The notes under the pieces are model-generated. The model worked only from the letters and a program-made list of their open reading frames with translations. It did not search any database and had not been told where the DNA came from. A stretch of 59,063 bases of DNA, filler included, from Sphacelaria rigidula (lineage: Eukaryota): assembly GCA_964200075.2 (NCBI GenBank). It is 2 parts of 2 records of this genome, joined end to end, with 100 filler letters (N's around TTAATTAATTAA, not from the genome) between each part and the next. Parts side by side here need not be neighbours in the genome. Positions count along the whole stretch, not along the records: positions 1 to 29,501 come from CAXNAA020000079.1; 1 more part is not named here. One strand, 5' to 3'. Below, in pieces: positions 2,349-53,674 of the stretch. Position 1 is the stretch's first letter. The number at the start of each line of letters is the position of its first letter. A program made the translations under genes and the position numbers.

Positions 2349-2510
2349 TTACTGGGATTTCCGCCCCCTCATACTGGCGGATACTGGCGGTACTGGGCAT
2401 TTCAGCGTCCCATACTGGTGCACACTTGCGATACTGCGTATTTTTATTGTCTCAGACTAGTTCATACTGGCGGATACTGGGACAATTGGTAATATTACGG
2501 TACTGGCGAT
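2349..2510 (+). repeat. Degenerate ATACTGG-motif minisatellite block
   Basis: Repeated ATACTGGCGG/TACTGGG motifs of the same family as 2985-3430. Confidence 0.6.
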
Positions 2511-3929: not shown

Positions 3930-6900
3930 TCACAACTGAATGCCAAACTCACTCGTAATGCGAGCAGCAACGGTACGAGTCACGCGCAATGTACGCATCT
4001 CCTTTGCAAGAAATTCCAGAGCGGCGTCGAAAATACCCTTGAAAGGCTCCCACGTACGCTACTCAAATTCGAAATTAACCCAGTCGACCGACACGATCAA
4101 CGAACGATCGTCTGCTTCTGCCACTCGGACAATACCAGCCATCTGAAATTGCCCCTGATAGAAAGCATGCTGAAACAGGCCCTTGACATCAGCCGTAAAA
4201 TGAAGCTGCGACTCTGCACAAAAACGCAAACGAGCTACATGGGCGGTCTGAACACGACCCGAAACAATGTTCCGAGTCTCAAACACGTGCGGGTGGTGAG
4301 CCCCAACCACTCTCCATGGACCAGTCCACGTCGCCATCAACTTGGGCGTACCGCCCGGACGACGCACGCGTGCATGCAAGACATAGTCGCCTACCTCGAA
4401 ATTCGGCAGGATCAACCCCGACGAGGACCCCTCTCGTCTACGCGCACGTTCAGTGGCAACACGTTCCTGCACTTGAACCTGGAAACATTATTGCAAGTCC
4501 AAGACTCCTTGCAATGCACGCTTAATTTGACCATCGTCCAGAACATCACATTTCTATTCCCCCGCCGACGAGGATGCCAACACCGAGAAAGACGTCCGAG
4601 GAGCACGATCAAACATCACATGGTACGGCGTACTATCGTAACGACGACGATATGCTGTATTGAGCGCCCATTGCACCGCAGGCAATACGTCCAACCACTC
4701 AGAAACCGCTCTACGCTGCTCAAGAAGAATAGAGCAAAGAGCACGAGCTACTTCGTTGACCTTGCGTTCGCACGCGCCAGTAGACCATGGAGAATACGCC
4801 ACCGCAAGCTGGTGATCAACAGGCAACGCCACCGCAAGCTGGTGATCAACAGGCAAAGCTTCTCGCGATCGGGCCAAGATCGCATTCTTAAAATGCGTGG
4901 CGGTATCACTCACCCACACACGGGGCACCCCCAAAGTTTGCACCAATTAGGCACAGATGTAGCAGTCGATTCAGGGGTACACACTGCTACTGGTCTCAGA
5001 GCCACAAAGTTGCTCAAATCATCCATGATCACCAATATGTATCGAAACCCAGCATCCTCCGGTAGACCTTGGGAAGCTAGCGGGCCCCTCTCGCCCACGT
5101 ACAAGAGGTCAGAGTGAACGACTTCATTCGGCGTGGTCCCGTGGACCGTTTCGCCGAGCTTGCGGGGAACAACATCGCCCGCCCTCGGGTCGGCACAGTG
5201 AAGACACCGGCGGACAAATTCGCGCAGATGACTTCTTATCCCCTGCCAGACACAGAACTCTTGCAAGCGCACGAGCGTCGCAGGCACATCACGATGCCCG
5301 GCGTCGCGCATGTGCGCGCAAATAATCAGACGTTCCTGCAACTGCTTGTCAGAACTCGGAATCCACGAAACGTTTCGGCCACGCACATGCACACGAAACA
5401 GACCTTCATTGTCCCGGATAGCAGTACCAACGTCCGACTCGAAAGGTTGCACATCCGCATCTTCGGCCCCAAGGTCTTTACGTTGCGCTCGGCGGACAAC
5501 AGATTTGGACGGCGTCGAGTCATCAGGTTCACACGGACCATGCACAGCCACAGCGCGCATAGGCAAAGCCGGAATATTCACCAAACGCAAAAGCAAGTTA
5601 GTTACCCCACGCGTGACGGTCACCCGAAATATGGCAAATCAAGTAACATTACTGACCAAGACCAGCTTTCCAACCTTCCAAACGTTGTACCAATGCTTTT
5701 GACACAGACGTAACGCACGCTTCTGGGTTGAAAATATACACGGGATCTCGGTGAGCCGTGAAAAGGTGCACGCCATCCCACAAAAGATGCTCCAAACGAC
5801 GAAAAGCGCTTACGATAGCAATCCTTCCTTATCAATTGAGGCCCAACGCAACTGCGAACCATTAGAATTACCACTGAGGAAAGCCAGCGGTTCATGCGTC
5901 ATGCCCTCAACCGGCAGGCGTCTTTGTATTTCCACTTTAGGCACCTGCGTAACGAAACTACCCCAATGACACTCAGATGCATCCGGAAACATTAACACCT
6001 GACAATCACGACGAGGATGAAACAGCGTCACGACGTGAGCCACCAGATCCTTCGCTGCCGCCCACGCCTGCAACCTGCCCTCCGTCCACGATGCAGGCTG
6101 AATAGCGCGGCTTTTTGCAACACGCTTCGTCCGCCTCGCAGCACCCGCCATGAGTTCTTCGAGGAAAAAACGCAAGGGAACTACGGTTTCTGCCATACGC
6201 GGCAACGAGGTTCGCAGCCAATTCACGGCCTGCAAAAATTGCGTGAGTTCTGTGGCCGTCTCCGGGCGCCGCGTGTCAGACAAGCCTTGCAATCTGACAG
6301 GGTCATCAGATACGAGTCCGTGTGAGTACACTTTCCCACACCAGACGAGTTCACTAGGGACGAAAGTGCATTTGTGCGCCGCCGCGAACAAACCAACATT
6401 CTCCAAACGGGCCAAGATAGCATCAAGCGTGTCTGAGCGTTCGTCTTCCGTGTCCGCGAAGAAAAACACGTCATCCACCCATATCTTGCATTTCAAGCCG
6501 ACAAGCAGTTCTGTCATGATACCTTGAAAATATGCTGTGGCATTCAACACGCCTTGCGGCACTCGCTTCGAGGTAAATAAGCCTAACGGGGTCGTTCGTG
6601 ATTGTGAAAATCTCCTGCGCCTCCTCCACCAACGGCATCTACCAATAACCTTGGAGGAGATCCAACTTGCCAAAAAACGAGCACTCAAAAGATCACGCCT
6701 GTCCGACTCTTGATTGGGCTTGATTGGGCATCATACCCGGCGACTTCTCGACCTGATCATTTACGGCCTTGTAGTCGCTTACCAGGCGAAATGGGTCTCT
6801 CTTGGGAACCGCCATCGCCGGACTGGACCATACCGCCTGCAGGTTCCGGACTACCAACCCAAGCGTCAAAAGAGCCGCCATGCACGGGGCCAACCAGCTC

Positions 6901-7712
6901 GACTTCACCGGATCGTACCGCCGCGGCTTCGCCTTCACCGTGGATGCCCCAGGTTTAACCTGAACACGCATGGGCTCCACGCGCGCAGGGGGATCACCCC
7001 GCAGCGCAAGACGAAACGCGTTGACGAGGCGATGCAGTATGCCGCGCAGGCGTTCCGCTTTGGGGACGCTGAGGCCTTTCGCCACAGCATCCATCACGCT
7101 CTCCTCCAGCGCGACCTTCCGAGCGGACTCCTCTTTCGCCGGGTCCATGAACATGTCCGGACCGCGCTCTACTAAGCCTTCCACCGCCGTATCCCGCTCC
7201 TCGGTAACCTGCCCTCCAGTCTCCTGAAAAGCATCCACCGACTAACTCACGCGACGACTGCCCAAAAAGGCGGGCGTCCTCACGTGCGGACCAGGCGGAA
7301 ATATCCGCGTCTTGATGGAGTCCTTCAACCGCTCATACGGTTCGACTCCTAGATCCTATAGCGTCGGCAGCCCTAGAAGAACAACGCCATCCGACCCTAG
7401 TATAATCGCAACCGAGATCGGAGGCAACTGCGCCAGCCCCCAAGCAGTCTTAAAAGCTAGCTTCAACGGAACAGTACGCTCTGTGACGTAAACATGCTGA
7501 ACTGACGCGGTGACGGCCTGCCGCGCCCCGAGCGAAAACGGGATGCGCAGCGGCACACCCAGGAGTTGACGCTCCAGCATCTCAACCATCTGCACCGGCA
7601 GACTCGTGAAATGGGCGCCAGGATCCAACACAGACCGAACCACAATGGCTCCACGCTGCCGTTGATTCGAAAGACATGACTCCGCAGGAATGTATCTGTC
7701 GGCAAGCTCCAC
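3930..7712 (-). pseudogene. pol: Gypsy pol (protease, RT, RNase H, integrase, chromodomain), frameshifted
   Basis: Protease VLDPGAHFTSL; RT WSSPAMAVPK..FRLVSDYKAVN, VPQGVLNATAYFQ, IWVDDVFF; RNase H MFPDASECHWG..PLAFLSG; integrase ICAHMRDAGHR..CLHC, YILVIMDDLSNF, WVSDTATHFKN, YSPWSTGACER, KLMATWTGPWRV (GPY/F); chromodomain-like VSVDWVNFEFE*RTWEP. Confidence 0.95.
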
Positions 7713-7749
7713 GGGGAATTCTTCCGCTGATCGATGCCGCTAATCCCAC

Positions 7750-8831
7750 TTGACGCCACGGCTGCGCAAGCTTCGCAGGTGGAGACGCCCCGGCAGAATC
7801 AAATGGCACCGCCGGTGGGTACGCCCCCTAGCCAGCAAGCCAAGAATTTGGCGAACCTCCAACCAGCGCATCAACTGCTGCCGGTGTCGCCGCCGGCGCC
7901 ACCGCCGGCGCCGGCGGAGTGTTCGACTCTGTAGAAGCCGATCCTACCTCCACCACCCGTTGCAGAGCAGCAGCACCTACGGCGGCGCCGGACCCAGAGC
8001 CAGGCCCATGCTGACGCCGCTGCCCTTACTGCTGCTGCAGGTTCTGCTGCTGCTGGGGCTGCTGCTGAGGGCTCGCCGGCGACCCTCCATCGCCGGAGGA
8101 TCCGCCGCCGCCACCACCACCCCGATACCTCGTCTTTTGCCCTTGTGCTACAATGCTGATGGCGCGCGGCACTAGACTGCCCAGACTCTCCACCGGAAGA
8201 CGTTGGGCAATCACGCGCGTAATGGCCGACCTGGTCACAGCGCTGGCAAGCAATACTCGCGGCGCGACCGGCCGATTTCGAGCCATGGTTGCGCAAAGAT
8301 TTCGGCGAAGAGGTGGACGACTAGCCTAAAACCTCTATTTGCCGTCACTCCTTGGCCTCGGCCACGACAGTGCTGATCACCAGGTATGGGTCGGCCTTCC
8401 AGTTTGTTTGGTGCCGCCGCTTGATAAGCACGGCTTGCTTGAATTTTTCCGGTCCCAACCCTTCAACCGAAGCCATAGTGATTACTGCTGCCGGGCCGGG
8501 AATAAACTCACCATCGGGGGAACGATATACTAGTTCTACGATCAGGTTTTCCGTGCAGTACTTCTCCAAATTTGCCAGGATGGGCTCCACCCGCTCCAAC
8601 ATCGTTATCGCCCGAGAATTCATGGCGACAGTGTTCGCCACGGCCGCGGACGCTTGGGTCAGATCTACCTCAGCGCCCGCCGCATGCCCAGCACGCTTTT
8701 TGATCGCTGCAACCAACTACGGCGGGGTGATATTGCCCTCATCATGTTCCAAACAAGCGAACACTCTATGTACGTGAGTTGCACTTGTTGAGCCATAGTC
8801 ACCACCTGATGCCGCACGGCACCCCCCGCAT
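7750..8831 (-). pseudogene. gag: Gypsy gag fragment with CCHC zinc knuckle
   Basis: CQRCDQVGHYARDC (CX2CX4HX4C) at about 8210-8251, followed by G/Q-rich low-complexity sequence. Upstream broken frames continue to the satellite boundary. Confidence 0.85.
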
Positions 8832-11800
8832 TACTCCAACACACCCAGGGAGGTACAATATCCGCTGTGAGCTGATATGGGATATTTTGCAAAAGCGAAA
8901 ATTTGTTCGGGACAGCGAATATCTCTTGAAACTGCAAACATATCATCGGGAGAAAGCCGCCAAACGTACTCTAACACACCCAGGAAGGTTCAATATCCGC
9001 TGGGAGCTGAAATGATATACTTTGCAGAAGCGAACATTTCTTTGAATAGCGGATAACGTCGGGAGAAAGCCGCCGAACGTACTCTAACACACCCTGGGAG
9101 GTACAATATCCGCTGAGAGCTGAAATGGGATATTTTGCATGAGCAATTATTTCTTGGAACGGCGACTTTTCCTTGAAACAACGAATATTATGGGGACAAA
9201 GCCGCCAAACGTACTTTAACACACCCAGGGAGATACATTGCAAAAGCAAGCATTTCTTTGAACAGCGAATATCATCGGGAGAGTGCCAGCAAACGCACTC
9301 GAACACACCCTGGGAGGTACAATATCCGCTGAGAGCAAAACTGGGATATTTTTCAAAAGCGAATGTTTCGTGGAACAGCGAATATTCCTTGGAACAACAA
9401 ATATTGAGGGGAGAAAGCCGCCAAACGTACTCTAACACACCCAGGGAGGTACAATATCGGCTGTGAGCTGAACTGGGATACTTTCCAAAAGCGAACATTT
9501 GTTTGGAACAGCGAGCATTTGTTGGAACCGCAAATATCATGGAGAGAACGGCGCCAAAGGTACTCGAACACACCCGGGGGGGTACAGTATCCGCTGAGGG
9601 CTCATATGGGATATTTTGCGACAGCGAATATTTCTTGGAACAACGAATATCTGTTGGTACAGCGACTATCAAGGGGATAAAACCGAGAAACGTACTGTGA
9701 CACACCTAGGGAGCTACAATATCCACTGTGAGCTGATATGGGATATTCGACATGAGCGAATGTTTCTTGGAACAGCGGATGTTTCTTGGCACAGCGAATA
9801 TCATCGGGAGAAAGCCGGCAAACGTACTCTGGCACACCCAGGGAGGTACGATATCCGCATTGGGCAGATATGGAATATTTTGCAAAAGTGAATATTTGTA
9901 GGAACAGCGAATATTTGTAGGAACAACGTATATTTGTTGGTTCAGCGTATATCAAGGGGATAAAACCAAGAGCCGTACTCTGACACACCCAGGGAGGTAC
10001 AATATCTCCTGTGAGCTGATATGAGATATTTTGTAAAAGCGAATATTTCTTGGAACAACATATATTTTTGGAACAGCGATGAACAAGGGGATAAATCCGA
10101 GAAACGTACTCTGACACATCTAGGGAGCTACAATGTTCGCTGTGAGCTGATGTGATATATTTTGCATGAGCCTATGTTTCTTGCAACAGCGAATATTTCT
10201 TGGAACAGCGAATATCATCCGGGAAAAGCCGGCAAACGTACTCTGGCACTCCCAGGGAGGTACGATATCCGCTGTGAGCTGATATGCGATATTTGCAAAA
10301 GCGACTATTTCTTGGAACAGCAAATATTTGTTAGTACAGCGATTATCAAGGGGATAAAACGGAGAAACGTACCCTGACACACCTAGGGAGCCACAATATC
10401 CGCTGGGAGCTGATATGGGACATTTTGCATGAGCGCATGTTTCTTGGAACAGCCAATACTTCTTGAAACAGCGAATATCATCGCGAAAAAGCCGAAAAAC
10501 GTACTCTGGCACACCCAGGGAGGATCAATTTTCGCGAAAAGCTGATATGGGATATTTTGCAAAAGCGAATATTTGTTGGTACAGCGACTATCAAGGGGAT
10601 AAAACCGAGAAACGTGCTCTGACACACCTAGGGAGCTACAATATCCGCTGTGAGCTGCTGTGGAATACTTTGCATGAGCGAGTATTTCTTGGAACAGCGA
10701 ATGTTTCTTGGAACAGCGATATCATCGGGAGAAAGCCGGCAAATGTACTCTGGCACTCCCAGGGAGGTACAATATCCGCATTGGGCTGATATGAGATATT
10801 TTGCAAAAGCGAATATTTGTTGGAACAGCGAATATTTGTTGGTCCAGCGAATATCAAGGGGATAAAACCGAGAAACGTACCCTGACACAGCTAGGGAGCT
10901 ACAACATCTGCTGTGAGCTGCTATGGGATTTTTTTCAGAAGCGAATGTTTCTTGGAACAGCGAATATCATCGGGAAAAAGCCGCAAAAAAAACTCTGACA
11001 CACTCAGGGAGGTTCAATTCCCGCGAAGAGCTGAAGTGGAATATTTTGCAAAAGCGAATATATCTTATAGCAACGAATGTCTGTTGGTACAGCGATATTA
11101 TCAAGGGGATAAAACCGAGAAACGTACTCTGACACACCCAGGGAGGTTCAATTCCCGCGGGAAGCTGAAGTGGGATATTTTGCAAAAGCGAGAATTTCTT
11201 GGAACGACGGATATTTGTTAGTACAGCGTCTATCAAGGGGATAAAACCGAGAAACGTACTCTGACACTCCTAGGGAGCTACGATATCCGCTGTGAGCAGA
11301 TGTGTAAAATTTACCATAAGCGAATGTTTCTTGGAGCAGCGCATGTTTCCTGGAACAGCGAATATCATCGGGATGAGGCCGCAAAACGTACTCCGACACA
11401 GCTAGGGAGCTACGACATCCGCTGTCAGCTGAGATGAGATATTCAACATGGGCGAATATTTCTTGGAACAACGGGGATTTGTTGGTACAGCGAATATCAA
11501 GCGAATAAAACCGAGAAACGTACTCCGACACAGCTAGGGAGCTACGATGTCCGCTGTGAGCTGATATTAGATGTTCTGCATGGGCGAATATTCGTTGGAA
11601 CAGCGAATATTTGTTGGAACAACGGATATTTGTTGGTACAGCGAATATCAAGCGAATTAAACCGAGGAACGTACTCCGACACACCTCGAGAGCTACATTA
11701 TCCGCTGTAAGCTGATATGGGACATTCAACATGAGCAAATGTTTCTTGGAACAGCGATTATCAAGGGGATAACACGGAGAACCGTACTCCGACGCAGCTA

Positions 11801-14800
11801 GGGAGTTACAATATTCGCTGGGAGCTGATATGTAAAATGGAACATAAGCGGATGTTTTCTAGAACAGCGCATGTTTCTTGGAACAGCGAATATCATCGGG
11901 ACGAAGCCACCAAAAGTACTTTGGCACACCCAGGGAGGTACGATATCCGCTGTCAGCTCATATGAGATAATCTGCATCGGCGAATATTTCTTGGAACAAC
12001 GGGGATTTGTTGGTACAGCGAATATGAAGCGGAAACAACCGAGAAACGTACTCCGACACACCTCGGGAGCTACGATATCCGCTGTGAGCTGATATGGGAT
12101 ATTCAACATGAGCGAATGTTTTTTGGAACATCGCCTGTTTGTTGGGACAGCAAATATCATCGGGTTGGGCCTGCAAAACGTACTCTGGCACACCCAGGGA
12201 GGTACGATATCCGCTGTAGGCTGATATGGTATATTCAACATGAGCGAATATTTCTTGGGACAGCGGATATCATCGGGATTGACCTGCAAAACGTACTCTG
12301 GCACACCCAGGGAGGTACGATATCCGCTGTGGGCTGATATGAGATATTGTGCATGGGCGAATAGTCCTTGGAACAGGGAATATTTGGTGGAACAACGCAT
12401 ATTTGATGGTTCAGCGTATATCAACGGGATAAAACCGCGAAACGTACTCCGACACCCCTAGGGAGCTACGATATCCGCTACGAGCTGATATGGGATATTC
12501 AACATGAGCGAGTGTTTCTTGGAACAGCGCATGTTTCTTGGAACAGCGCATGTTTCTTGGAACAGCGAATATCAAGGGGATACAACCGAGAAAAGTACTC
12601 TGGCACACCCTGGGAGGTACGATATTCGCTGTAGGCTGATATGAGATATTATGTACGGGCTAATATTTCAATGGAACAGCGAATATGGTTGGAACATCGA
12701 ATGTTTGTTGGTACAGCGAATATTGAGGGGATAAGCCGAAAAACGTACTCCGACACATCTAGGGAGCTACAATATTCGCTGTGAGCTGATATGGGATATT
12801 CAACATGAGCGAATGTTTAAGGAACATCGCTTGCTTCCTGGAACAGCGAATATCATCGGGATGGACCTGCAAAACGTACTCTGGCACACCCAGGGAGGTA
12901 CGATATCCGCTGTGGGCTGATATGAGATAGTTTGCATGGGCGAATATTTCTTGGAACAGCGAATATTTGGTGGAACAACGCATATTTGTTGGTTCAGCGT
13001 ATATCAACGGGATAAAACCGAGGAACGTACTCCGACACCCCTAGGGAGCTACGATATCCGCTGTAGGCTGATATGGGATATTCTGCATGAAAGAATGCTT
13101 CTTGGAACATCGCATGTTTCTTGGAACAGCGTATATCATCGGGATGGACCTGCAAAACGTACCCAGGCACAACCATGGAGCTACAAAATCCGCTGTTGGC
13201 TGATGAAAGATATTCTGTATGAGCGAATATTTCTTGGAACAGCGGAAATGTGTTTGAACAACGGATATTTGTTGGTTCAGCATATATCACTGGGATGAAA
13301 CCGAGGAACGTACTCTGACACCCATAGGCAGCTACGATATCCGCTGTGAGCTTATATGAGATATTTTGCATGGTTCAAATATTTCTTGTAACAGCGGATA
13401 TTTCTCGGAACAACGGATATTTCTTGGTTCAGCGTATATTATTGGAACGAAGCCGTGAAACGTACTTTGACACCCCTAGGGAGCTACGATATTCGCTGGG
13501 AGCTTATATGGGATATTCAACATGAGCGCATGTTTATTGGAATGGCGTATGTCCTCGGGATGGACCTGCAAAACGTACTCTGGCACACCCAGCGAGGTAC
13601 GACATCCGCTGTAGGCTGATATGAGATATTGTGCATGGGCGTATATTTCTTGGAACAGCGAATATTTGTTGGAACAACGGATATTTGTTGGTTCAGCGTA
13701 TATCAATGGGATAAAACCGCGAAACGTACTCCGACACCCCAAGGAAGCTACGATATCCGCTGTGAGGTGATATGGGACAACCAACATTAGCAATTGTTTC
13801 TTCAAACAGCGCATGTTTCTTGGAAGCGCGTATATCGTCAAGATGGACCCGCAAAACGTACTCTGGCACAGCCAGGGAGATACGATATATGCTGTAGGCT
13901 GATATGAGACAGCGTGCATGAGCGAAAATTTCTCGGAACAGCGTATATTTGGTGGAACAACGGATATTTTTTTGGTTCAGCGTATATCAATGGGATGAAA
14001 CCGAGGAACGTACTCCGGCACCCATAGGGAGGTACGATCTCCGCTGTGAGCTGATATGGGATATTCTGCATGAGCGAACGTTTCTTGAAAAGCGCATGTT
14101 TCTTGGAACAGCGTTTATCATCGGGATGGACCTGCGAAACGTACTCTGGCACACCCAGATAGGTACGATATCCGCTGTAGGCTTATATGATATATTTTGC
14201 ATGGGCGAAGATTTCTCGGAACAGCGAATATTTGGTGGAACAATGGATATTCGTTGGTTCAGCGTATATCGATGGGATGAATCCGCGAAACGTACTCCGA
14301 CACCCCTAGGGAGCTACGATATCCGCTGTGAGCTGATATGGGATATTCTGCATGAGCGAATGTTTTTTGGAACATCGCATGTTTCTTGGATCAGTGTGTA
14401 TCATCGGGATGGACCTGCGGAACGCACTTTGGCACAGCCAGGAAGGTACGATATCCGCTGTAGGGTTAGGGTTAGGGTTAGGGTTAGGGTTACCCTAACC
14501 CTAACCCTAACCCTAACCTCAGCGTATATCAATGGGATGAAACCGAGGAACGTACTCCGATATCCCTAGGGAGCTACGATATCCGCTGTGAGCTGATATG
14601 GGATATTCTGCATGAGCGAATGCTTTTCGGAACATCCCATGTTTCTTGGAACAGAGTATATCATCGGGATGGACCTGCAAAACGTACTTTGGCACACCAA
14701 GGGAGGTATAATATCCGCTGTCGTCTGATATGAGATATTTTGCATGGGCGAAAATTTCTCGGAACAGCGAATATTTGGTGGAACAACGGATATTTGTTGG

Positions 14801-17800
14801 TTCAGCGTATGTCAATGGGATGAAACCCAGGAACGTACTCCGACACCCCTAGGGAGCTACGATATCCGCTGTGAGCTGATATGGGATATTCTGCATGAGC
14901 GAATGCTTCTTGGAACATCCCATGTTTCTTGGAACAGAGTATATCATCGGAATGGACCTGCAAAACGTACTCTGGCACAGCCAGGAAGGTACGATATCCG
15001 CTGTAGGCTGATATGAGATATTTTGCATGGGCGAATATTTCTTGGAACAGCGAATATTTGGTGGAACAACGGATATTTGTTGGTTCAGCGTATATCAATG
15101 GGATAAAACCGAGGAACGTACTCTGACACCCCTAGAGAGCCACGGTATCCGCTGTGACCTGATATTGGATATTCTGCATGAGCGAATGCTTCTTGGAACA
15201 TGGCATGTTTCTTGGAACAGAGTATATCATCGGGATGGACCTGCAAAACGTACTCTGGCACACCAAGGGAGGTACGATATCCGCTGTAGGCTGATATGAG
15301 ATATTTTGCATGGGCGAAAATTTCTCGGAACAGCGACTATTTGGTGGAACAACGGATATTTGTTCGTTCAGCGTATATCAATGGGATAAAACCGAGAAAC
15401 GTACTCCGACACCCCTAGGAAGCTACGATATCCGCTGTGAGCTGATATGGGATATTCTGCAAGAGCGAATGTTTCTTGGAACATCGCATGTTTCTTGGAA
15501 CAGCGTATATCATCGGGATGGACCTGCAAAACGTACTCTGGCACAGCCAGGGAGATACGATATCTGCTGTAGGCTGATATGAGATAGCGTGCATGAGCGA
15601 ACATTTCTCGGAACAGCGAATATTTGGTGGAACAACGGATATTTTTTGTCTCAGCGTATATCAATGGGATAAGATCGAGGAACGTACTCTGACACCCCTA
15701 GGGAGCTACGATATCCGCTGTGAGCTGATATGGGATATTCTGCATGAGCGAATGCTTCTTGGAACATCCCATGTTTTTTGGTACAGAGAATATCATCGGG
15801 ATGGACCTGCAAAACGTACTTCGGCACACCAAGGGAGGTACGATATCCGCTGTAGGCTGATATGAGATATTTTGCACGGGCGAAAATTTCTCGGAACAGC
15901 GAATATTTGGTGGAACAACGGATATTCGATGGTTCAGCGTATATCAATGGGATAATACCGAGGAACGTTCTCTGACACCCCTAGGAAGCTACGATATCCG
16001 CTGTGAGCTGATATGGGATATTCTGCAGAAGCGAATGTTTCTTGGAACATCGTATGTTTCTTGGAACAGCGTATATCATCGGGATGGACCTGCAAAACGT
16101 ACTCTGGCACACCCAGGAAGATGCGATATCCGCTGTAGGCTGATATGAGATAGTGTTCATGGGCGAATGTTTCTAGGAACAGCGAATATTTGGTGGAATA
16201 ACGGATATTTGTTGGTTCAGCGTATATCAATGCGACAACACCGAGGAACATACTCCGACACCCCTAGGGAGGTACGATATCCGCTGTGAGCTGATATGAG
16301 ATATTCTGCATGGGCGAATGTTTCTTGGAACATCGCATGTTCCTTGGAACAGCGTTTATCATCGGGATGAACCTGCGGAACGTACTCTGGCACAGCCAGG
16401 GAGTTACGATATCCGCTGTAGGCTGATATGAGGTTTTTTGCAAGGGCGAAAATTTCTCGGAACAGCGACTATTTGGTGGAACAACGGATATTTGTTGGTT
16501 TAGCGTATATCAATGGGATAAAACCGAGAAACGTACTCCGACACCCCTAGGAAGCTACGATATCCGCTGTGAGCTGATATGGGATATTCTGCAAGAGCGA
16601 ATGTTTCTTGGAACATCGCATGTTTCCTGGAACAGCGTATATCATCGGGATGGACCGGCAAAACGTACTCTGGCACAGCCAGGGAGATACGATATCTGCT
16701 GTAGGCTGATATGAGATAGCGTGCATGAGCGAAAATTTCTCGGAACAGCGAATATTTGGTGGAACAACGGATATTTTTTGTCTCAGCGTATATCAATGGG
16801 ATAAAACCGAGGAACGTACTCTGACACTCCTAGGGAGCTACGATATCCGCTGTAGGCTGATATGAGATATTCTGCATGAGCGAATGTTTCTTGACACAGC
16901 GAATATTTGGTGGAACAATGGATATTCGTTGGTTTAGCGTATACCAATGAGATAAAACCGAGGAACATACTTCGACACCCCTAGGGAGCTACGATATCCG
17001 CTGTGAGCTGATATGGGATATTCTGCATGAGCGAATGCTTCTTGGAATATCGCATGTTTCTTGGAACAGCGTATATCATCGGGATTGACGTGCGGAACGC
17101 ACTCTGACACACCCACGGAGATGCGACATCCGCTGTAGGCTGATATGAGATGTTTGGCATGGGCGAATATATTTTGGAATAGCGAATATTCAGTGGGACA
17201 ACGGATACTTGAGGGTTCAACGTATATCAATGGGATAAAACCGAGGAACGTACTCCGACACCCCTAGGGAGCTACGATATCCGCTGTGACCTGATATGGG
17301 ATATTCTGCATGAGCGAATGTTTCTTGGAACATCGCATGTCTCTTCGAACAGCGTTAACAACGGGATGGATCGCAAAAAGTACTCTGGCACACCAAGGAA
17401 GGTACGATATCCGCTGTAGGCTGATATGAGATAATGCGCATGAGCGGAAGTTTTTTGAAACAGCGAATATTTGGTGGAACAACGGATATTCGTTGGTTCA
17501 GCGTATACCAAAGAGATAAAACCGAGGAACGAACTCTGACACCCGTAGGGAGGTACGATATCCGCTGTGAGCTGATATGGGATATTCTGCATGAGCGAAT
17601 GCTTCTTGGAACATCGCATGTTTCTTGGATCAGCGTTTATCATCGGGATGGACCTGAGGAACGCACTTTGACACACCCAGGGAGATGCGATATCCGCTGC
17701 CGGCTGATATGAGATAGTTTGCATGGGCGAGTGTTTTTTGGAACAGCGAATATTTGGTGGAACAACGGATATTTGTTGTTTCGGCGTAGATCAATGAGAT

Positions 17801-20800
17801 AAAACCGAGGAACGTACTCTGACACCCCGAGGGAGGTACGATATCCGCTGTGAGCTGATATGGGATATTCTGCATGAGCGAATGTTTCTTGGAACAGCGC
17901 ATGTTTCTCGGAACAGCGTATATCATCGGGATGGATCTGCAAAACGTACTCTGGCACACCCAGGGAGGTACGATATCCGCTGTAGGCTGATATGAGATAG
18001 TGTGCATGGGCGAATATTTCTTGGAACAGCGAATATTCGGTGGAACAACGGATATTCGTTGGTTCAGCGTACATCAATGGGATGAAACCGAGGGACGTAC
18101 TCTGACACCCCTAGGGAGCCACGGTATCCGCTGTGACCCAATATGAGATATTCTGCATGAGCGAATGCTTCTTGGAACATCGCATGTTTCTTGGAACAGC
18201 GTATATCATCGGGATGGACGTGCAAAACGTATCCTGGCACACCAAGTGAGGTACGATATCCGCTGAAGGCTGATATGAGATATTTTGCATGTGCGAAAAT
18301 TTCTCGGAACAGCGAATATTTGGTGGAACAACGGATACTTTTTTGGTTCAGCGTATATCAATGGGATGAAACCGAGGAACGTTCTCCGACACTCCTAGGA
18401 AGCTACGATATCCGCTATGAGCTGATATGGGATATTCTGCAAGAGCGAATGTTTCTTGGAACATCGCATGTTTCTTGGAACAGCGTAAATCATCGGATTG
18501 GACCTGCTGAACGTACTCTGGCACAGCCAGGGAGGTACGATATCCGCTGTAGGCTGATATGAGATAGCGTGCATGAGCGAAAATTTCCCGGAACAGCGAA
18601 TATTTGGTGGAACAACGGATACTTTTTTGGTTCAGCGTAGATCAATGGGATAAAACCGAGGAACGTACTCTGACACCCCTAGGGAGTTACGGTATCCGCG
18701 GTGACCTGATTTGGGATATTCTGCATGAGCGAATGTTTCTTGGAACAGCGAATATTTGGTGGAACAACGGATCTTCGTTGGTACAGCGCATACCGAAGAG
18801 ATAAAACCGAGGAACGAACTCCGACACCCCTAGGGAGCTACGATATCCGCTGTGAGCTGATATGGGATATTCTGCATGAGCGAATGTGTCTTGGAACATC
18901 GCATGTTTCTTCGAACAGAGTATATCATCGGGATGGATCGCAAAACGTACTCTGGCACACCAAGGAAGGTACGATATCCGCTGTAGGCTGATATGAGATA
19001 GTGTGCATGAGCGGAAGTATCTTGAAACAGCGAATATTTGGTGGGACAACGGATATTCGTTGGTTCAGCGTATACCAATGGGATAAAACCGAGAAACGTA
19101 CTCTGACACCCCTAGGGAGCTACGATATCCGCTGTGAGCTGATATGGGACATTCTGCATGAGCGAATGCTTCTTGGAACATCGTATGTTTCTTGGAACAG
19201 CGTTTATCATCGGGATGGACCTGCGGAACGCACTTTGACACACCCAGGGAGATGCGATATCCGCTGTAGGCTGATGTGAGATAGTTTGCATGGGCGAGTG
19301 TTTTTTGGAACAGCGAATATTTGGTGGAACAACGAATATTTGTTGATTCAGCGTAGATCAATGGGATAGCACCGAGGAACGTACTCTGACACCCCTAGGG
19401 AGTTACGGTATCCGCTGTGAGCTGATTTGGGATATTCTGCATGAGCGAATGTTTCTTGGAACAGTGCATGTTTCTTGGAACAGCGTATATCATCGGGATG
19501 GATCGCAAAACGTACTTTGGCACACCCAGGGAGGTACGATATCCGCTGTAGGCTTGTATGAGATAGCGTGCATGGGCGAATATTTCTTAGAACAGCGAAT
19601 ATTCGGTGGAACAACGGATATTTTTTGGTTCAGCGTATATCAATGGGATAAAACCGAGGAACGTAGTCTGACACCCCTACGGGGCTACGGTATCCGCCGT
19701 GAGCTGATATGGGATATTCTGCATGAGCGAATGCTTCTTGGAACATCGCATGTTTCTCGGAACAGCGTATATCATCGGGATGGACCTTCAAAACGTACTC
19801 TGGCACACCAAGGGAGGTACGATATCCGCTGTAGGCTGATATGAGATATTTTGCATTGGCGAAAATTTCTCGGAACAGCGAATATTTGGTGGAACAACGG
19901 ATATTTGTTAGTTCAGCGTATATCAATGGGATAAAACCGAGGAACGTATTCCGACACCCCTAGGAAGCTACGACATCCGCTGTGAGCTGATGTGGGATAT
20001 TCTGCGAGAGCGAATGTTTCTTGGAACATCGCATGTTTCTTGGAACAGCGTAAATCATCGGGATGGACCTGCAGAACGTACTCTGGCACAGCCAGGGAGA
20101 TACGATATCCGCTGTAGGTTGATATGAGATAGCGTGCATGAGGGAAAATTTCTCGGAACAGCCAATATTTGGTGGAACAACGGATGTTTTTTTGGTTCAG
20201 CGTATATCAATGGGATAAAACCGAGGAACGTACTCTGACATCCCTAGGGAGGTACGATATCCGCTGTAGGCTGATATTAGATATTTTGCATGTGCGAAAA
20301 TTTCTCGGAACAGCGAATGTTTGGTGGAACAACGGTTTTTTTTTTGGTTCAGCGTATATCAATGGGATAAAGCCGAGGAACGTACTCCGACACCCCCAGG
20401 AAGCTACGATAGCCGCTATGAGCTGATATGGGATATTCTGCAAAAGCGAATGCTTCGTGGAACATCGCATGTTCCTTGGAACAGCGTAAGTCATCGGGAT
20501 GGACCTGCAGAACGTACTCTGGCACAGCCAGGGAGATACGATATCCGCTGTAGGTTGATATGAGATAGCGTGCATGAGCGGAAGTTTCTCGGAACAGCGA
20601 ATATTTGGTGGAACAACGGATGTTTTCTTGGTTCAGCGTATATCAATGGGATAAAACCGAGGAACGTACTCTGACATCCCTAGGGAGCTACGATATCCGC
20701 TGTAGGCTGATATGGGATATTCTGCATGAGCGAATGTTTCTTGGAACAGCGAATATTTGGTGGAATAACGGATATTCGTTGGTTGAGCGTTTACCAAAGA

Positions 20801-23800
20801 GATAAAACCGAGGAACGTACTCCGACACCCCTAGGGAGCTACGATATCCGCTGTGACCTGATATGGGATATTCTGCATGAGCGAATGTTTCTTGGAACAT
20901 CGAATATTTGGTGGAACAACGGATGTTCGTCGGTTCAGCGTATACCAAAGAGATAAAACCGAGGAACGTACTCCGACACCCCTAGGGAGCTACGATATCC
21001 GCCGTGAGCTGATATGGGATATTCTGCATGAGCGAATGTTTCTTGGAACATCGCATGTTTCTTGGAACAGCGTAAATCATCGGGATGGACCTGCGGAACG
21101 CACTCTGACACACCCAGGGAGATGCGATATCCGCTGTAGGTTGATATGAGATAGCGTGCATGAGCGAAAAATTCTCGGAACAGCGAATATTTGGTGGAAC
21201 AACGGATCTTCGTTGGTTCAGCGTATATCAATGGGATAAAACCGAGGAACGTACTCTGACATCCCTAGGGAGCTACGATATCCGCTGTGAGCTGATATGG
21301 GATATTCTGCATGAGCGAATGTTTCTTGGAACAGCGAATATTTGGTGGAACAACGGATCTTCGTTGGTTCAGCGTATACCAATGAGATATAACCGAGGAA
21401 CATACTCCGACACCCCCAGGGAGCTACGGTATCCGCTGTGAGCTGATATGGGATATTCTGCATGAGCGAATGTTTCTTGGAACATCGCATGTTTCTTCGA
21501 ACAGAGTATATCATCGGGATGGATCGCAAAACGTACTCTGGCACACCAAGGAAGGTACGACATCCGCTGTAGGCTGATATGAGATAGTGTGCATGAGCGG
21601 AAGTATCTTGAAACAGCGAATATTTGGTGGAACAACGGATATTCGTTGGTTCAGCGTATACCGAAGAGATAAAACCGAGGAACGTACTCTGACACCCCTA
21701 GGAAGCTACGATATCCGCTGTGACCTGATATGAGATATTCTGCATGAGCGAATGCTTCTTGGAACATCGCATGTTTCTTGGAACAGCGTTTATCATCGGG
21801 ATGGACCTGCGGAACGCACTTTTACACACCCAGGGAGATGCGATATCCGCTGCAGGCTGATATGAGATAGTTTGCATGTGCGAAAATGTCTCGGAACAGC
21901 GAATATTTGGTGGAACAACGAATATATTTTTGGTTCAGCCTACATCAATGGGATGAAACCGAGGAACGTACTCCGACACCCCTAGGGAGCTACGATATCC
22001 GCTATGAGCTGATATGGGATATTCTGCAAGAGCGAATGTATCTTGGAACATCGCATGTTTCTCGGAACAGCGTAAGTCATCGGGATGGACCTGCAGAACG
22101 TACTCTGGCACAGCCAGGGAGATACGATATCCGCTGTAGGTTTATATGAGATAGCGTGCATGAGCGAAAATTTCTCGGAACAGCGAATATTTGGTGGAAC
22201 AACGGATGTTTTTTTGGTTCAGCGTATATCAATGGGATAAAACCGAGGAACGTACTCCGACATCCCTAGGGAGCTACGATATCCGCTGTAGGCTGATATG
22301 GGATATACTGCAGGAGCGAATGTTTCTTGGAACAGCGAATATTTGGTGGAACAACGGATATTCGTTGGTTCAGCGTATACCAAAAAAAAAAAACCGAGGA
22401 ACGTACTCCGAAACCCCTAGGGAGCTACGATATCCGCCGTGACCTGATATGGGATATTCTGCATGAGCGAATGTTTCTTGAAACATCGAATATTTGGTGG
22501 AACAACGGATATTCGTCGGTTCAGCGTATACCAAAGAGATAAAACCGAGGAACGTACTCCGACACCCCGAGGGAGCTACGATATCCGCCGTGAACCGAGG
22601 AACGTACTCCGACACCCCTAGGGAGCTACGATATCCGCCGTGAGCTGATATGGGATATTCTGCATGAGCGAATGTTTCTTGGAACATCCCAATTTCTTGG
22701 AACAGCGTATCTCATCGGGATGGACCTGCGGAACGCACTCTGACACACCCAGGGAGATGCGATATCCGCTGTAGGTTGATATGAGATAGCGTGCATGAGC
22801 GAAAATTTCTCGGAACAGCGAATATTTGGTGGAACAACGGATGTTTTTTTGGTTCAGCGTATATCAATGGGATGAAACCGAGGAACGTACTCTGACATCC
22901 CTAGGGAGTTACGATATCCGCTGTGAGCTGATATGGGATATACTGCATGAGCGAATGTTTCTTGGAACAGCGAATATTTGGTGGAACAACGGATCTTCGC
23001 TGGTGCAGCGTATACCAATGAGATAGAACCGAGGAACATACTCCGACACCCCCAGGGAGCTACGGTATCCGCTGTGAGCTGATATGGGATATTCTGCATG
23101 AGCGAATGTTTCTTGGAACATCGCATGTTTATTCGAACAGAGTATATCATCGGGATGGATCGCAAAACGTACTCTGGCACAGCAAGGAAGGTACGATATC
23201 CGCTGTAGGCTGATATGAGATTGTGTGCATGAGCGGAGGTTTCTTGGAACAGCGAATATTTGGTGGAACAACGGATATTCGTTGGTTCAACGTATACCAA
23301 TGAGATATAACCGAGGAACATACTCCGACACCCCCAGGGAGCTACGATATCCGCTGTGACCTGATATGGGATATTCTGCATGAGCGAATGCTTCTTGGAA
23401 CATCGCATGTTTCTTCGAACAGCGTATATCATCGGGATGGACGTGCGAAACGTACTCTGGCACACCAAGTGAGGTACGATATCCGCTGTAGGCTGATATG
23501 AGATAGTTTGCATGTGCGAACATTTCTCGGAACAGCGAATATTTGGTGGAACAACGGATACTTTTTTGGTTCAGCGTATATCAATGGGATAAAACCGAGG
23601 AACGTACTCCGACACCCCTAGGAAGCTACGATATCCGCTATGAGCTGATATGGGATATTCTGCAAGAGCGAATGTTTCTTGGAACATCGCATGTTTCTTG
23701 GAACAGCGTATCTCATCGGATTGGACCTGCAGAACGTACTCTGGCACAGCCAGGGAGATACGATATCCGCTGTAGGCTGATATGAGATAGCGTGCATGAG

Positions 23801-26800
23801 CGAAAATTTCTCGGAACAGCGAATATTTGGTGGAACAACGGATGTTTTTTTGGTTCAGCGTAGATCAATGGGATAAATCCGAGGAACGTACTCTGACATC
23901 CCTAGGGAGCTACGGTATCCGCTGTGAGCTGATATGGGATATTCTGCATGAGCGAATGTTTCTGGAACAGCGAATATTTGGTGGAACAACGGATCTTCGT
24001 TGGTTCAGCGCATACCAATGAGATATAACCGAGGAACATACTCCGACACCCCCAGGGAGCTACGGTATCCGGCGTGACCTGATATGGGATATTCTGCATG
24101 AGCGAATGTTTCTTGGAACATCGCATGTTTATTGGAACAGCGTATATCGTCGGGATGGACCTGCGAAACGTACTCTGGCACAGCCAGGGAGATACGATAT
24201 CCGCTGTAGGCTGATATGAGATATTGTGCATGGGCGAATATTGTTTGGAACAGCGGATATTTGTTGGAATAACGGATATTCGTTGGTTCAGCGTATATCA
24301 ATGGAATGAAACCGAGGAACGTACTCAGACAACCCTAGGGAGCTACGATATCCGCTGTGAGATGATCTGGGATAGTCTGTATGAGCGAATGTTTCTTGGA
24401 ACATCGCATGTTTCTTGGAACAGCGTTTGTCATCGGGATGGACCTGCGGAACGCACTTTGACACACCCAGGGAGATGCGATATCCGATGCAGGCTGATAT
24501 GAGATAGTTTGCATGGGCGAGTGTTTTTTGGAACAGCGATTATTTGGTGGAACAACGGATATTTGTTGTTTCAGCGTAGATCAATGGGATAAAACCGAGG
24601 AACGTATTCTGACACCCCTAGGGAGTTACGGTATCCGCTGTGAGCTGATTTGGGATATTCTGCATGAGCGAATGCTTCTTGGAACAGCGCATGTTTCCTG
24701 GAACAGCGTATATCATCGGGATGGATCGCAAAACGTACTCTGGCACACCCAGGGAGGTACGATATCCGCTGTAGGCTGATATGACATAGTGTGCATGGGC
24801 GAATATTTCATAGAACAGCGAATATTTGGTAGAACAACGGATATTTGTTGGTTCAGCGTACATCAATGGGATAAAACCGAGGAACGTAGTCTGACACCCC
24901 CACGGGGCTACGGTATCCGCCGTGAGCTGATATGTGTTATTCTGCATGAGCGAATGCTTCTTGGAACAGCGCATGTTTCTTGGAACAGAGTATATCATCG
25001 GGATGGACCTGCAAAACGTACTCTGGCACACCGAAAGAGGTACGATATCCGCTGTAGGCTGATATGAGATATTTTGCATTGTCGAAAAATTCTCGGAACA
25101 GCGACTATTTGGTGGAACAACGGATATATTTGTTGGTTCAGCGTATATCAATGGGATAAAACCGAGGAACGTACTCCGACACCCCTAGGGAGCTACGATA
25201 TCCGCTATGAGCTGATATGGGATATTCTGCAAGAGCGAATGTTTCTTGGAACATCCCATGTTTCTTGGAACAGCGTAAATCATCGGATTGGACCTGCAGA
25301 ACGTACTATGGCACAGCCAGGGAGATACGATATCCGCTGTAGGTTGATATGAGATAGCGTGCATGAGCGAAAATTTCTCGGAACAGCGAATATTTGGTGG
25401 AACAACGGATGTTTTTTTGGTTCAGCGTATATCAATGGGATAAAACCGAGAAACGTACTCTGACACCCCTAGGGAGCTACGATATATGCTGTGAGCTGAT
25501 ATGGGATAATCAATATGAGCGAATGATTCTTGGAACAGCGCATGTTTCTTGGAACAGCGAATGTAATCGGGATGGATCGCAAAAGTCACTCTGGCAAACC
25601 CAGGGATATGCGATATCCGCTGTAGGCTGATATGAGATAGCGTGCATGAGCGAAAATTGCTCGGAACAGCGAATATTTGGTGGAACAACGGATATTTGTT
25701 GGTTCAACGTAAATCAATGGGATGGAACCGAGGAACGTACTCTGACACCCCTAGGGAGCTACGATATCCGCTGTGAGCTGATTTGGGATATTCCGCATGA
25801 GCGAATGTTTCTTGGAACAGCGAATATTTGGTGGAACAACGGATATTTGTTGTTCCAGCGTATACTAATGAGATAAAACCGAGGAACATACTCCGACACC
25901 CCTAGGGAGCTACGATATCCGCTGTGAGCTGATATGGGATATTCTGCATGGACGAATGTTTCTTGGAACATCGCATGTTTCTTGGAACAGCGTATCTCAT
26001 CGGGATGGACCTGCGGAACGTACTCTGACACACCCAGGGAGATGCAATATCCCCTGTAGGCTGATATGAGATAGTTTGCATGGGCGAATATTTCTTGAAA
26101 CAGCGAATATTTAGTGGAACAACGAGTATTCGTTAGTTCAGCGTATATCAATGAAATAAAGGCCGAGGAACGTTCTCCGACACCCCTGGGAGCTACGATA
26201 TCCGCTGTAAGCTGATATGGGATATTCTGCATGAGCGAATGCTTCTTGGAACAGCGCATGTTTCTTGGAACAGCGTATATCATCGGGATGGATCGAAAAA
26301 CGTACTCTGGCACACCCAGGGAGGTACGATATCCGCTGTAGGCTGACATGAGATATTTTGCATGAGCGGGAGTTTCTTGAAACAGCGGATATTTGGTGGA
26401 ACAACGGATATTCGTTGGTTCAGCGTATATCAATGGGATAAAACCGAGGAACGTACTCCGACACCCCTAGGGAGCTACGATATCTGCTGTCAGCTGATCT
26501 GGGATATTCTGCATGAGCGAATGTTTCTTGGAACATCGCATGTTTCTTGAAACAGCGAATATCATCGGGATGGACCTGCGAAACGTACTCTGGCACAGCC
26601 AGGGAGATACGATATCCGCTGTAGGCTGATATGAGATGGTGTGCATGAGCGGAAACTTCTCGGAACAGCGAATATTTGGTGGAACAACGGATATTCGTTG
26701 GTTCAGCGTGTACCAATGAGGTAAAACCGAGGAACGTACTCCGACACCCCTAGGGAGTTACGAAATCCGCTGTGAGCTGATATGGGATATTCTGCATGAG

Positions 26801-29442
26801 CGAATGTTTCTTGGAACATCGCATGTTTCTTCGAACAGCGTATATCATCGGGATGGATCGCAAAACGTACTCTGGCACACCCAGGGAGATGCGATATCCG
26901 CTGTAGGCTGATATGAGATATTTTGCATGGGCGGAGGTTTCTTGGAACAGCGAATATTTGGTGGAACAATGGATATTTCTTGGTTCAGCGTATATCGATG
27001 GGATTAAACCGAGGAACGTACTCCGACCCCCCTAGGGAGCTACTATATCCGCTGTGAGCTCATGTGGGATATTCAACATGAGCGAATGTTTATTGGAACA
27101 GCGTATATCGTCGGGATGGACCTGCGAAACGTACTCTGGCACAGCCAGGGAGATACGATTTCCGCTGTAGGCTGATATGAGATATTGTGCATGGGCGAAT
27201 ATTGTTTGGAACAGCGGATATTTGTTGGAATAACGGATATTCGTTGGTTCAGCGTATATCAATGGGATGAAACCGAGGAACGTACTCAGACAACCCTAGG
27301 GAGCGACGATATCCGCTGTGTGCTGATTTGGGATATTCTGCATGAGCGAATGCTTCTTGGAACATCGCATGTTTCTTGGAACAGCGTTTATCATCGGGAT
27401 GGACCTGCGGAACGTACTCTGGCATACCCAGGGAGATACGATGTCCGCTGTAGGCTGATATAAGATATATTTTGCATGGGCGAATATTTCTTGGAATGGC
27501 GATTATTTCTTGGAACAACGGATATTCGTTGGTTCAGCGTATATCAATGGGATGAAACCGAGGAACGTACTCCGACACCCCTAGGGAGCTACGATATCCG
27601 CTGTGAGCTGATATGGGATATTCAACATGAGCGAATGTTTTCTGGAACATCGCACGTTTCTTGGAACAGCGTATATCATCGGCTGTGAGCTGATATGGGA
27701 TTTTTGCATAAGTGAAAGTTTCTTGGTACAGCGATTATCAAGGGGATAAAACCGAGAAACGTACTCTGACACACCTAGGAAGCTACAATATCCGGTGTGA
27801 GCTGATATGGGATATTCTGCATGAGCGAGTGTGTCTTCGGACAACGAATGTTCGTCGGAACAGCGAATATCAAGGAGACGGAACTGAGAAACGTACTCCG
27901 ACACACCTAGGGTGGTAAATATCCGTCGTGAGCTGATATGAGATATTTTGTAAAAGCGAATGTTCCTCCGAACAACGACTATTTCTTGATACAGCGATTA
28001 TCAAGTGGATAAAACCGAGAAACGTACTCTGACACACCTAGGGAGCTACAATATCCGCCGTGAGCTGATATGAGATATTTTGCATGAGCGAATGTTTCTT
28101 GGGACAGCGAATGTTTTTTGACCAGCGATTATCACGGGGATAAAATCGAGAAACGTGCTCTGCCACACGTAGGGAGGTACAATATCCACTGTGAGCTGAT
28201 ATGGGATATTCTGCATGGGTGAATGTTTCTCGGAACAACGAATGTTCGTCGGAACAGCAAATATCATCAGGGTGAAGCCGCAAAACGTACTCTGGCACAT
28301 CCAGGGAGGTACGATATCCGCTGTGGGCTGATATGATATATTCTGCAAAAGCGAATGGTTCTTGGAACCGCGCATGTTTCTTGGAACAGCGAATATCATC
28401 GGGATGAAGCCGCCAAACGTACTCTAACACACCCAGGGAGGTACAATATCCCCTGTGAGCTGAAATGAATTATTTTGCGAAAGCGAATATCTTGGGGAAC
28501 AGCAAATGTGAAGTGTAGTAAGCCGTCGAAAGTACTCTCACACATCCAGGGAGGAACAATACCCGTTGTGAGCTGAAATGGGATATCCGGCAGAAGCGAA
28601 CATTTGTTGGAACGGCGAATCTGTTTCGAACAGCGAATATAATGGGGACAAAGTCGTCGAACGAACTTTGACACACCCGGTAGGTACAGTATCCGCTGTG
28701 AGCTGAAATGGGACATTATGCAGAAGCGAATAGTTTTTGAAAAAACGACTATTTCTTGGAACATCAAAGAATTATGAAGGGTAGAGAGCCGCCAAACGAT
28801 CTCTGACACACCCGAGGACGTGTAATATCCGCTGTGAGCTGAGATGTGATATCTTGCAAAAGCGGATATTTCTTGGAATAGCGAATATTCCTTGAAACAT
28901 CAAATATCGAGGGTATGAAGCCGCCGAATGAACTCTAATGCTCCCAGGAACGTACGATAACCGCTGAGAGCTGAAATGGGATATTTTGCAGAAGCGAATA
29001 TTTCTTGGAATAGCGAAAATCAGTGGGAAAAAGATGGAAAACATACTCCAACACACCCAGGTAGGTTCAATATCCGCTGTGAGCTGAAACTAGATATTTT
29101 GCAGAAGTGAATATTGCTGGGAATAGCGAATGTCAAGGGGATTGAGCCGCCCAACGATCTCTAACACACTTAGGGAGGTACAGTACCCGCTGTAAGCTAA
29201 AATGGGATATTATGCGGAAGCGATTATTGCTGGGAACAGCGAATATCATCGGGATGAAGCCGCCAAACGTACTCTAACACACCCAGGGAGGCACAATATC
29301 CGCCGTGAGCTGAGATGGGATATTTTGCAGATGCGAATATTTCTTGGAACAGCGAAAACAGTTCCGAACAGCGATTATCATGGGGACAAAGTCTTCGAAC
29401 GTACTCTAACACACCCAGGGAGGTACAATATCCGCTGTAAGC
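8832..29442 (+). repeat. 20.6-kb tandem satellite array (roughly 145-150 monomers of 113/132/151 bp; 283-bp dimer in the core)
   Basis: Monomer starts: 8967 to 9080 (113), 9080 to 9212 (132), 14551 to 14683 (132), 14683 to 14834 (151), 20665 to 20816 (151), 29157 to 29270 (113), 29270 to 29402 (132). The ORF track repeats at a 283-bp period (14519/14802; 15368/15651/15934). One orientation throughout, with non-satellite sequence at both ends. Confidence 0.98.
14461..14518. repeat. Interstitial head-to-head telomeric repeat TAGGG(TTAGGG)4TTA-(CCCTAA)4CC
   Basis: Read directly from the sequence; embedded inside one satellite monomer. Confidence 0.98.
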
Positions 29443-53610: not shown

Positions 53611-53652
53611 CTGAAGACGGTAGCAAAGACGCGATGGCGGCAAGCCTGCGAG

Positions 53653-53674
53653 GTGTGTGTGTGTGTGTGTGTGT
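53653..53674 (+). repeat. (GT)11 microsatellite in a TMEM19 intron
   Basis: Read directly from the sequence. Confidence 0.9.

Follow-up and report, generated by a model that had tools for sequence, protein, structure and literature searches.

A head-to-head telomeric block within a satellite monomer, best explained by telomerase extension of both ends of a break

How does a short run of telomeric repeats, written in two opposed orientations, come to lie inside a single monomer of a satellite array? We analyzed this question in a window of 59,063 bases (the whole stretch of DNA under study), in which positions 14465-14518 hold 54 bp, G(TTAGGG)4TTA(CCCTAA)4CC, in place of 77 bp of one 151-bp monomer. 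The coordinates of this block, which we refer to as the scar, and of the features around it are collected in Table 1.

We first describe the satellite in its ordinary form. Its monomers are built from a core of ~94 bp and one to three copies of a 19-bp subrepeat, which gives lengths of 113, 132 or 151 bp, and the anchor spacings across the array were 132 bp (45 times), 151 bp (28 times), 131 bp (16 times), 152 bp (13 times) and 113 bp (9 times). From ~13600 to ~25800, the 132- and 151-bp monomers alternate regularly and form a higher-order repeat of 283 bp. In ordinary copies the gap from the anchor GATATCCGCTGTAGG to TCAGCGTATATC is exactly 77 bp, and the other anchors of the scar-bearing monomer type read GCTGTAGG and then CTGATATG... 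In normal monomers these 77 bp are bracketed by the satellite's native 10/11 inverted repeat (GATATCCGCTG ... CAGCGTATATC). When array units were compared with each other, identity was flat with distance, at 0.88 for units 1 to 4 positions apart. A literature search for satellite strings returned chance primer matches only. The satellite family was also present at very high depth in three sequencing runs, one of them labelled as an algae metagenome.

At the scar, the sequence reads from GATATCCGCTGTAGG directly into the telomeric block and from the block directly into TCAGCGTATATC. The block contains four plus four hexamers, every one of them perfect, and is wholly telomeric, with no filler, no piece derived from telomerase RNA and no duplication of the flanks. 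The 12-mer TTAGGGTTAGGG had six matches in the window (three per strand), all inside 14466-14516, where 0.02 were expected, and none of 100 shuffles reached six matches; no second run of two or more telomeric hexamers was found elsewhere in the window. Among 50 occurrences of the anchor GATATCCGCTGTAGG (at most one mismatch), 49 led into satellite and one, at 14450, led into telomeric sequence. The anchor-to-anchor distance at the scar was 128 bp, where the 132/151 pattern predicts 151 bp, and the 132/151 alternation carried on to both sides of the scar with the orientation of the satellite unchanged. These results bear out the description given in a first-pass annotation of this DNA, which had reported the exchange of 77 bp for 54 bp of telomeric sequence in a 128-bp monomer, a left tract continuing the satellite's TAGG as (TTAGGG)n on the top strand, a right tract of (TTAGGG)n on the bottom strand, and perfect repeats throughout. 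The comparison with empty paralogous sites that it had proposed led to the same picture, as the other 49 anchors lack the block, 77 bp are missing at the scar and a TAGG seed stands at its left side. The block also forms a perfect inverted repeat, whose arms occupy 14464-14490 and 14492-14518 around a single central T at 14491; as single-stranded DNA the scar folds with -37.7 kcal/mol (z = -11.5), and the stem reaches into the native 11-nt inverted repeat. The structure is truly present in the sequence, and its origin by chance is very improbable.

Table 1. Positions of the scar, its host satellite and other features of the window.
Feature	Coordinates	Strand	Remarks
Host satellite array	8860..29440	+	~20 kb; TRF rows, anchor spacings
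GATATCCGCTG, left arm of native 10/11 inverted repeat	14450..14460	+	
Satellite's own TAGG	14461..14464	+	in register with left tract; likely primer microhomology
Left tract, G (TTAGGG)4 TTA	14465..14492	+	28 nt, G-strand on top
Right tract, GG (TTAGGG)4 T	14492..14518	-	27 nt, G-strand on bottom
Perfect inverted repeat	14464..14518	.	arms 27 + 27 nt
CAGCGTATATC, right arm of native inverted repeat	14520..14530	+	satellite resumes; T 14519 also native
Decayed LTR retroelement beside satellite, gag zinc knuckle	7874-8320	-	
Decayed LTR retroelement, RT/RNase H	5813-6730	-	
Decayed LTR retroelement, integrase zinc domain	4913-5638	-	
Second integrase fragment	483-884		
Split DUF92 gene	~52,000-53,700	-	

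We next examined the two junctions and the centre of the block. On the left side, four satellite bases (TAGG) stand in register with the tract, a match that has a chance of about 1/256 and that microhomology priming would predict. In primates, rodents and horse, it is established that short runs of telomeric sequence are inserted where breaks occurred, together with deletions and in-register bases (PMC7215372). In the sections of that paper drawn on here, at least 3 nt were in register at 35% of horse ITS loci, where at most 1.56% were expected (PMC7215372, Table 6), and a deletion at the site was the commonest accompaniment of ITS insertion in horse, at 30% (PMC7215372, Table 5). At the right junction, the bottom strand reads ...GCTGA-3' and continues with GGTTAGGG; no base is in register, and priming at this end therefore rests on analogy. 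The right tract opens with GGTTA directly after non-telomeric DNA. At the centre, the top G-tail ends in ...GGGTTA and the bottom G-tail in ...GGGT, and the two overlap by 1 nt, the A:T pair at 14492, so that each tail could be filled in on the other.

The best explanation of the scar is, in our view, that telomerase extended both ends of a break and that the extended ends were then joined, an account that we hold to be somewhat more probable than its negation. We infer that telomerase was involved, that both ends were primed, and that events and joining took the following course. The array would have broken inside a 151-bp monomer, or at two places with the loss of 77 + n x 283 bp. Telomerase would have lengthened the top-strand 3' end by ~28 nt after annealing via the satellite's TAGG, and the bottom-strand 3' end (...GCTGA-3') by ~27 nt, starting with GGTTAGGG. 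The G-rich tails would have met by the single A:T pair, each would have been filled in with the other as template, and the nicks would have been sealed. A two-ended telomerase origin had already been put forward in the first-pass annotation, and it now has the left register, the GGTTA start of the right tract and the purely telomeric insert on its side, while the right junction contributes no base in register.

This account presupposes that TTAGGG is the native telomere repeat of the host, which is probable by analogy with Ectocarpus, as judged from an Ectocarpus-like retroelement in the window and from the telomeres of Ectocarpus itself, which are (TTAGGG)n (PMC11541908). The reverse transcriptase of the retroelement beside the satellite has unnamed relatives that are 73-79% identical, and among the relatives assigned to a named eukaryote the closest are Ectocarpus proteins, with 61% identity over 84% of the query. 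The window is thus probably brown-algal DNA or that of a related lineage. The split DUF92 gene indicates a eukaryote with introns. Scans for Rfam families and tRNAs gave no match in the window.

To place the scar among similar structures, metagenome contigs were scanned for the 27-nt centre of the block, which yielded at least 119 marine metagenome loci (L001-L119) with the same head-to-head centre (…GGGTTACCC…) and short perfect arms. Among the matches listed, the flanks were not inverted copies of each other and most loci were GC-rich (median GC of the flanks, 0.66); identical flanks occurred in different assemblies, for example in the pairs L021/L034, L033/L058 and L006/L056. The perfect arms were mostly unequal, and differed by at most 1 nt in only 9 of the 109 listed loci that had 20 or more flanking bases on each side. 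A direct duplication of flank sequence across the insert, 9-28 nt long, was present at 26 of 88 non-redundant listed loci (40-nt flanks), and 34 of 2000 mismatched flank pairs reached the same in the control. Duplications of variable length should result when the two 3' ends of a staggered break are extended outward before they are joined, and neither a transposase nor copy-back would give them. Furthermore, among the matches listed, 96 of 194 distinct tract ends started with GGTTA, often after CCT, compared to an expected 1/6, a bias that selection on splice signals may shape. Since the comparator loci come from other organisms, they support the mechanism by analogy only.

We also asked what these inserts interrupt. 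An ORF-continuity test on the 26 duplication-bearing loci ranked the exact reconstruction best at one of them and was uninformative, because several frames stay open in GC-rich DNA. A Pfam search with 98 flank ORFs from the same loci gave one strong match (L050) and five that were weak or of low complexity. At L050, the insert and a duplication of ~11 nt interrupt the gene of the transhydrogenase alpha subunit, a conserved coding sequence. The left flank corresponds to positions 1-68 of Pfam AlaDh_PNT_C (E = 7e-18; 1e-18 in a second run) and aligns to residues 151-212 of PDB chain 1x13_A, the right flank aligns to residues 211-245, and the two-residue overlap of the alignments falls inside the duplicated segment. 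The right piece (44 aa) had no Pfam match when searched alone and aligns to solved transhydrogenase chains. The duplicated piece contains AG|GT, so that the insert could be spliced out like an intron; a splice that links the left copy with the right one is predicted from the sequence to restore the reading frame.

The alternative that survives best, and that we nevertheless consider unlikely, is healing of one side followed by copy-back: telomerase extends the left end from TAGG, and the right arm is a reverse-complement copy of the left, produced by filling in a hairpin or snap-back as far as the double-stranded boundary, after which the 3' end is joined to the resected right end. Reverse-complement templated insertions beside their template are a hallmark of polymerase-theta end joining. 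The near-equal length of the tracts (28 and 27 nt), the arms of 27 + 27 nt and the end points of the palindrome at 14464 and 14518, the former 1 nt inside the left junction, would fit such copying without a second telomerase event and thus count against the two-ended account; likewise, the right junction shows no register microhomology and the hairpin is very stable. The right arm is indeed the exact reverse complement of the left, although two opposed telomerase products would match likewise. However, the 1-nt centre has no room for a physical loop and therefore makes simple self-priming awkward, and once the satellite's TAGG is added to the left tract, the two telomeric runs differ in length (31 vs 27 nt). 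Copy-back moreover predicts a GGTTA start in one case out of six, yet the right tract has this start, and it is the modal one among the listed comparators. Nor can copy-back yield the unequal arms or the flank duplications seen at the comparator loci, among the matches listed, and a two-ended route therefore exists in nature. Equal arm length was considered separately as proof of copying and was rejected, given the rarity of near-equal arms among the listed comparators and a difference of 4 nt at the scar with TAGG included.

Could the scar instead be an artefact or a non-germline molecule? The consensus may have taken up a long read that was chimeric or mis-polished, or else a rare molecule that was somatic or specific to the culture, and the setting invites such doubt, since the junction is known from one assembly and lies inside a 20-kb satellite, where assembly is hardest. 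The reads of the three satellite-bearing runs (X1, X19, X20; shares 0.19-0.21) lend the junction no support, yet they bear on it in neither direction, as 14454-14527 were skipped as repeat and depth was near nil over 14403-14453. The run search returned no sequencing run that held at least half of the window's words, and a search of metagenome contigs for the exact satellite-telomere junction gave 0 matches. Against an artefact, a fold-back read would invert the right flank, whereas the satellite keeps its orientation and phase; complementarity across the scar stops after the satellite's own 11-nt inverted repeat, and the right flank is not the reverse complement of the left. The perfect 27-nt tracts are far shorter than real telomeres, and the scar is therefore not the product of two joined chromosome-end reads. 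There is no N or gap close by, the nearest N run being at 29502. Finally, identical architectures turn up repeatedly in metagenome assemblies that are independent of one another, which shows that the assembler does not create the structure as such. On this evidence, an artefactual or non-germline origin appears rather improbable.

A further question is how local the event was. The missing sequence measures 77 bp, or 77 bp increased by any number of 283-bp higher-order repeats: the loss is fixed only modulo 283 bp, because two parts of a tandem array joined in the same orientation will always look in register. The claim of the first-pass annotation that the satellite resumes in the same orientation and register thus stands for orientation and phase, but register can be read only as a loss of 77 bp modulo 283 bp, and its argument that a fusion of two chromosomes would not restore register is weak for the same reason. 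Two separately broken and seeded ends may have fused head to head, with 77 + n x 283 bp lost between them or with the ends coming from the arrays of different chromosomes, and their join would look just as regular. The flat identity among units means that a large deletion would leave no trace; a test of unit similarity meant to separate a small from a large deletion was uninformative, as identity had no distance gradient. Nevertheless, a non-local join needs more events than one local break, units to the left and right of the scar show no discontinuity in similarity, and tracts of 27 nt are unlikely to have acted for long as telomeres, which together make this origin very unlikely in our judgement.

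That a ready-made head-to-head telomeric block was captured or copied, whether from a telomere fusion, from extrachromosomal telomeric DNA or from another genomic site, strikes us as highly improbable. Breaks are generally known to capture extrachromosomal DNA, and a symmetric fragment would account for the equal arms, but such an origin would leave to coincidence both the four bases in register on the left and the GGTTA with which the right tract begins. That the scar is what remains of a mobile element whose terminal inverted repeats resembled telomeres can be all but dismissed: the inverted-repeat structure is present and some comparator loci carry flank duplications, but the scar lacks 77 bp where a duplication would be looked for, has neither internal sequence nor a further copy in the window, and the 9-28 nt spread of the comparator duplications is unlike a transposase footprint. 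The first-pass annotation had named target duplications or signs of a mobile element as observations that would speak against break repair, and neither is present at the locus, which is single-copy in the window.

If the scar is real, it shows that breaks in a long satellite array can be seeded with telomeric sequence on both sides and yet be rejoined, which would bear on the shrinkage of arrays and on the origin of new chromosome ends or fusions, and a repair footprint documented in vertebrates would be extended to a distant lineage. The scar alone is one locus of a known kind, in the sequence of one assembly. More promising, and of wider value, is how abundant the same head-to-head footprint is in marine eukaryote DNA, where it sometimes stands inside genes.

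Among known systems, the twin priming of L1 elements offers a parallel in mechanism. In twin priming, reverse transcription starts from each 3' end of a staggered break and the resulting two cDNAs come together head to head, with a target duplication or a deletion left behind; twin priming, default template positioning and snap-back are used here as general concepts. The L1 template is the mRNA of the element, whereas that of the scar would be telomerase RNA, with a product that has no coding capacity. By extension, twin priming by telomerase may be a regular repair route in algae and marine protists with TTAGGG-type telomeres, one that scatters head-to-head inserts with variable target duplications through genes; we put this forward tentatively and regard it as doubtful. 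Under such a reading, the near-equal arms of 28 and 27 nt would fit coordinated synthesis by a telomerase dimer, and the scar would be a case that we have not found reported in a probable brown alga.

The marine metagenome inserts resemble the scar in their centre, their non-inverted flanks, their short perfect arms and their GGTTA start. They differ from it in that they belong to other, GC-rich organisms and often carry a duplication of 9-28 nt, whereas the scar has a deletion, and in that at least one lies in a coding region, whereas the scar lies in a satellite. Head-to-head telomeric inserts with target duplications or in genes, and introns made from telomeric sequence, did not turn up in our searches of the algal literature. 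Pervasive interstitial TTAGGG tracts are described in the genome paper of a coccolithophore (Calcidiscus), whose sections drawn on here do not mention their orientation.

Among vertebrate systems, ITS that arose by chromosome fusion, such as human 2q13, share the head-to-head arrangement (TTAGGG)n(CCCTAA)n (PMC8537989, PMC7215372, in the sections used here). Fusion ITS join two chromosome ends, whereas the scar lies in one satellite that keeps the same orientation and phase and has perfect tracts of 27-28 nt; an origin of the 2q13 kind is ruled out by the single satellite, its continued phase and the unbroken similarity of its units. The short ITS of primates, rodents and horse, studied by the Giulotto/Nergadze laboratory, are closer, as they likewise consist of an exact run of hexamers gained in one step at an internal site (PMC7215372). 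According to the same source, they are mostly of single orientation and lie in unique DNA, in contrast to the two opposed tracts of the scar in a satellite, and at one horse locus head-to-head tracts are tied to an inversion (PMC7215372). The closest likeness is to TERC-ITS: in the portion of PMC8537989 used here, 3 of 41 loci (two in mouse lemur, one in Xenopus) have head-to-head tracts, for which the authors propose a second telomerase acting across the break, and these loci, like the scar, hold two head-to-head stretches at a single insertion site. Thus, a two-ended healing route is already published for vertebrates, head-to-head cases included (PMC8537989, PMC7215372). The vertebrate head-to-head TERC-ITS carry a fragment copied from telomerase RNA, whereas all 54 bases of the scar are telomeric (PMC8537989 for the former); the scar is set apart from the vertebrate cases by having no such fragment, by its place in a satellite and by its distant lineage.

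The 77 bp that the 54-bp telomeric block replaced had lain almost exactly between the arms of an inverted repeat native to the satellite, and only TAGG and one T were left beside the arms. Because of this position, the two 3' ends of the break carried near-identical sequence. The right arm, CAGCGTATATC, is also the core of the satellite's 19-bp subrepeat. The inverted repeat could be a protein-binding or structure-prone breakage site. Elsewhere, the duplication of a 50-bp core segment locally breaks the regularity of the array, and the last monomer directly precedes position 29502, where the filler begins.

Features of the satellite and its flanks, and of metagenome locus L050
Feature	Position	Strand	Description
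Inverted repeat, GATATCCGCTG ... CAGCGTATATC	14450-14460 and 14520-14530		10/11 match; in every 151-bp monomer
Tandem duplication of 50-bp satellite-core segment	22543-22643		98% identity
Decayed LTR retroelement	4900-8320; 483-884	-; +	gag zinc knuckle, RT/RNase H, integrase zinc domain
41-bp tandem repeat	3011-3356 and 2350-2436		8.4 copies, 80% matches; upstream of retroelement
DUF92 gene	52026-53697	-	three short ORFs, consecutive parts of Pfam profile
Head-to-head telomeric insert with duplication of ~11 nt	L050:300-560		within transhydrogenase alpha-subunit coding region

The retroelement lies directly beside the satellite on its left, and its RT shares 73-79% identity with unnamed proteins and 61% with Ectocarpus proteins; such a neighbourhood could represent a centromere-like arrangement. 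The 41-bp repeat bears no relation to the main satellite. On the right, the three DUF92 ORFs cover profile positions 70-126, 145-173 and 178-214 and are, as predicted from sequence, parts of one intron-split membrane-protein gene. This gene lies ~23 kb from the satellite as counted along the joined window, in which the two occupy different records.

A scan of metagenome contigs showed that telomeric inserts built head to head around the centre seen in the scar are common, being present at no fewer than 119 loci (L001-L119; for example L010, L013, L088 and L085) in GC-rich marine contigs from other organisms, and these served as comparators. Among the matches listed, 26 of 88 non-redundant loci carried a direct flank duplication of 9-28 nt, compared to 34 of 2000 in the control, and the tract began with GGTTA at 96 of 194 ends where it met the flank. 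At one comparator, L050, the insert interrupts a coding region, and a further CCCTAA-type tract is found ~300 nt downstream. The duplication at the L050 insert includes AG|GT, and the flanks align with residues 151-212 and 211-245 of PDB 1x13_A. This insert could be an intron made by telomerase and removable by splicing.
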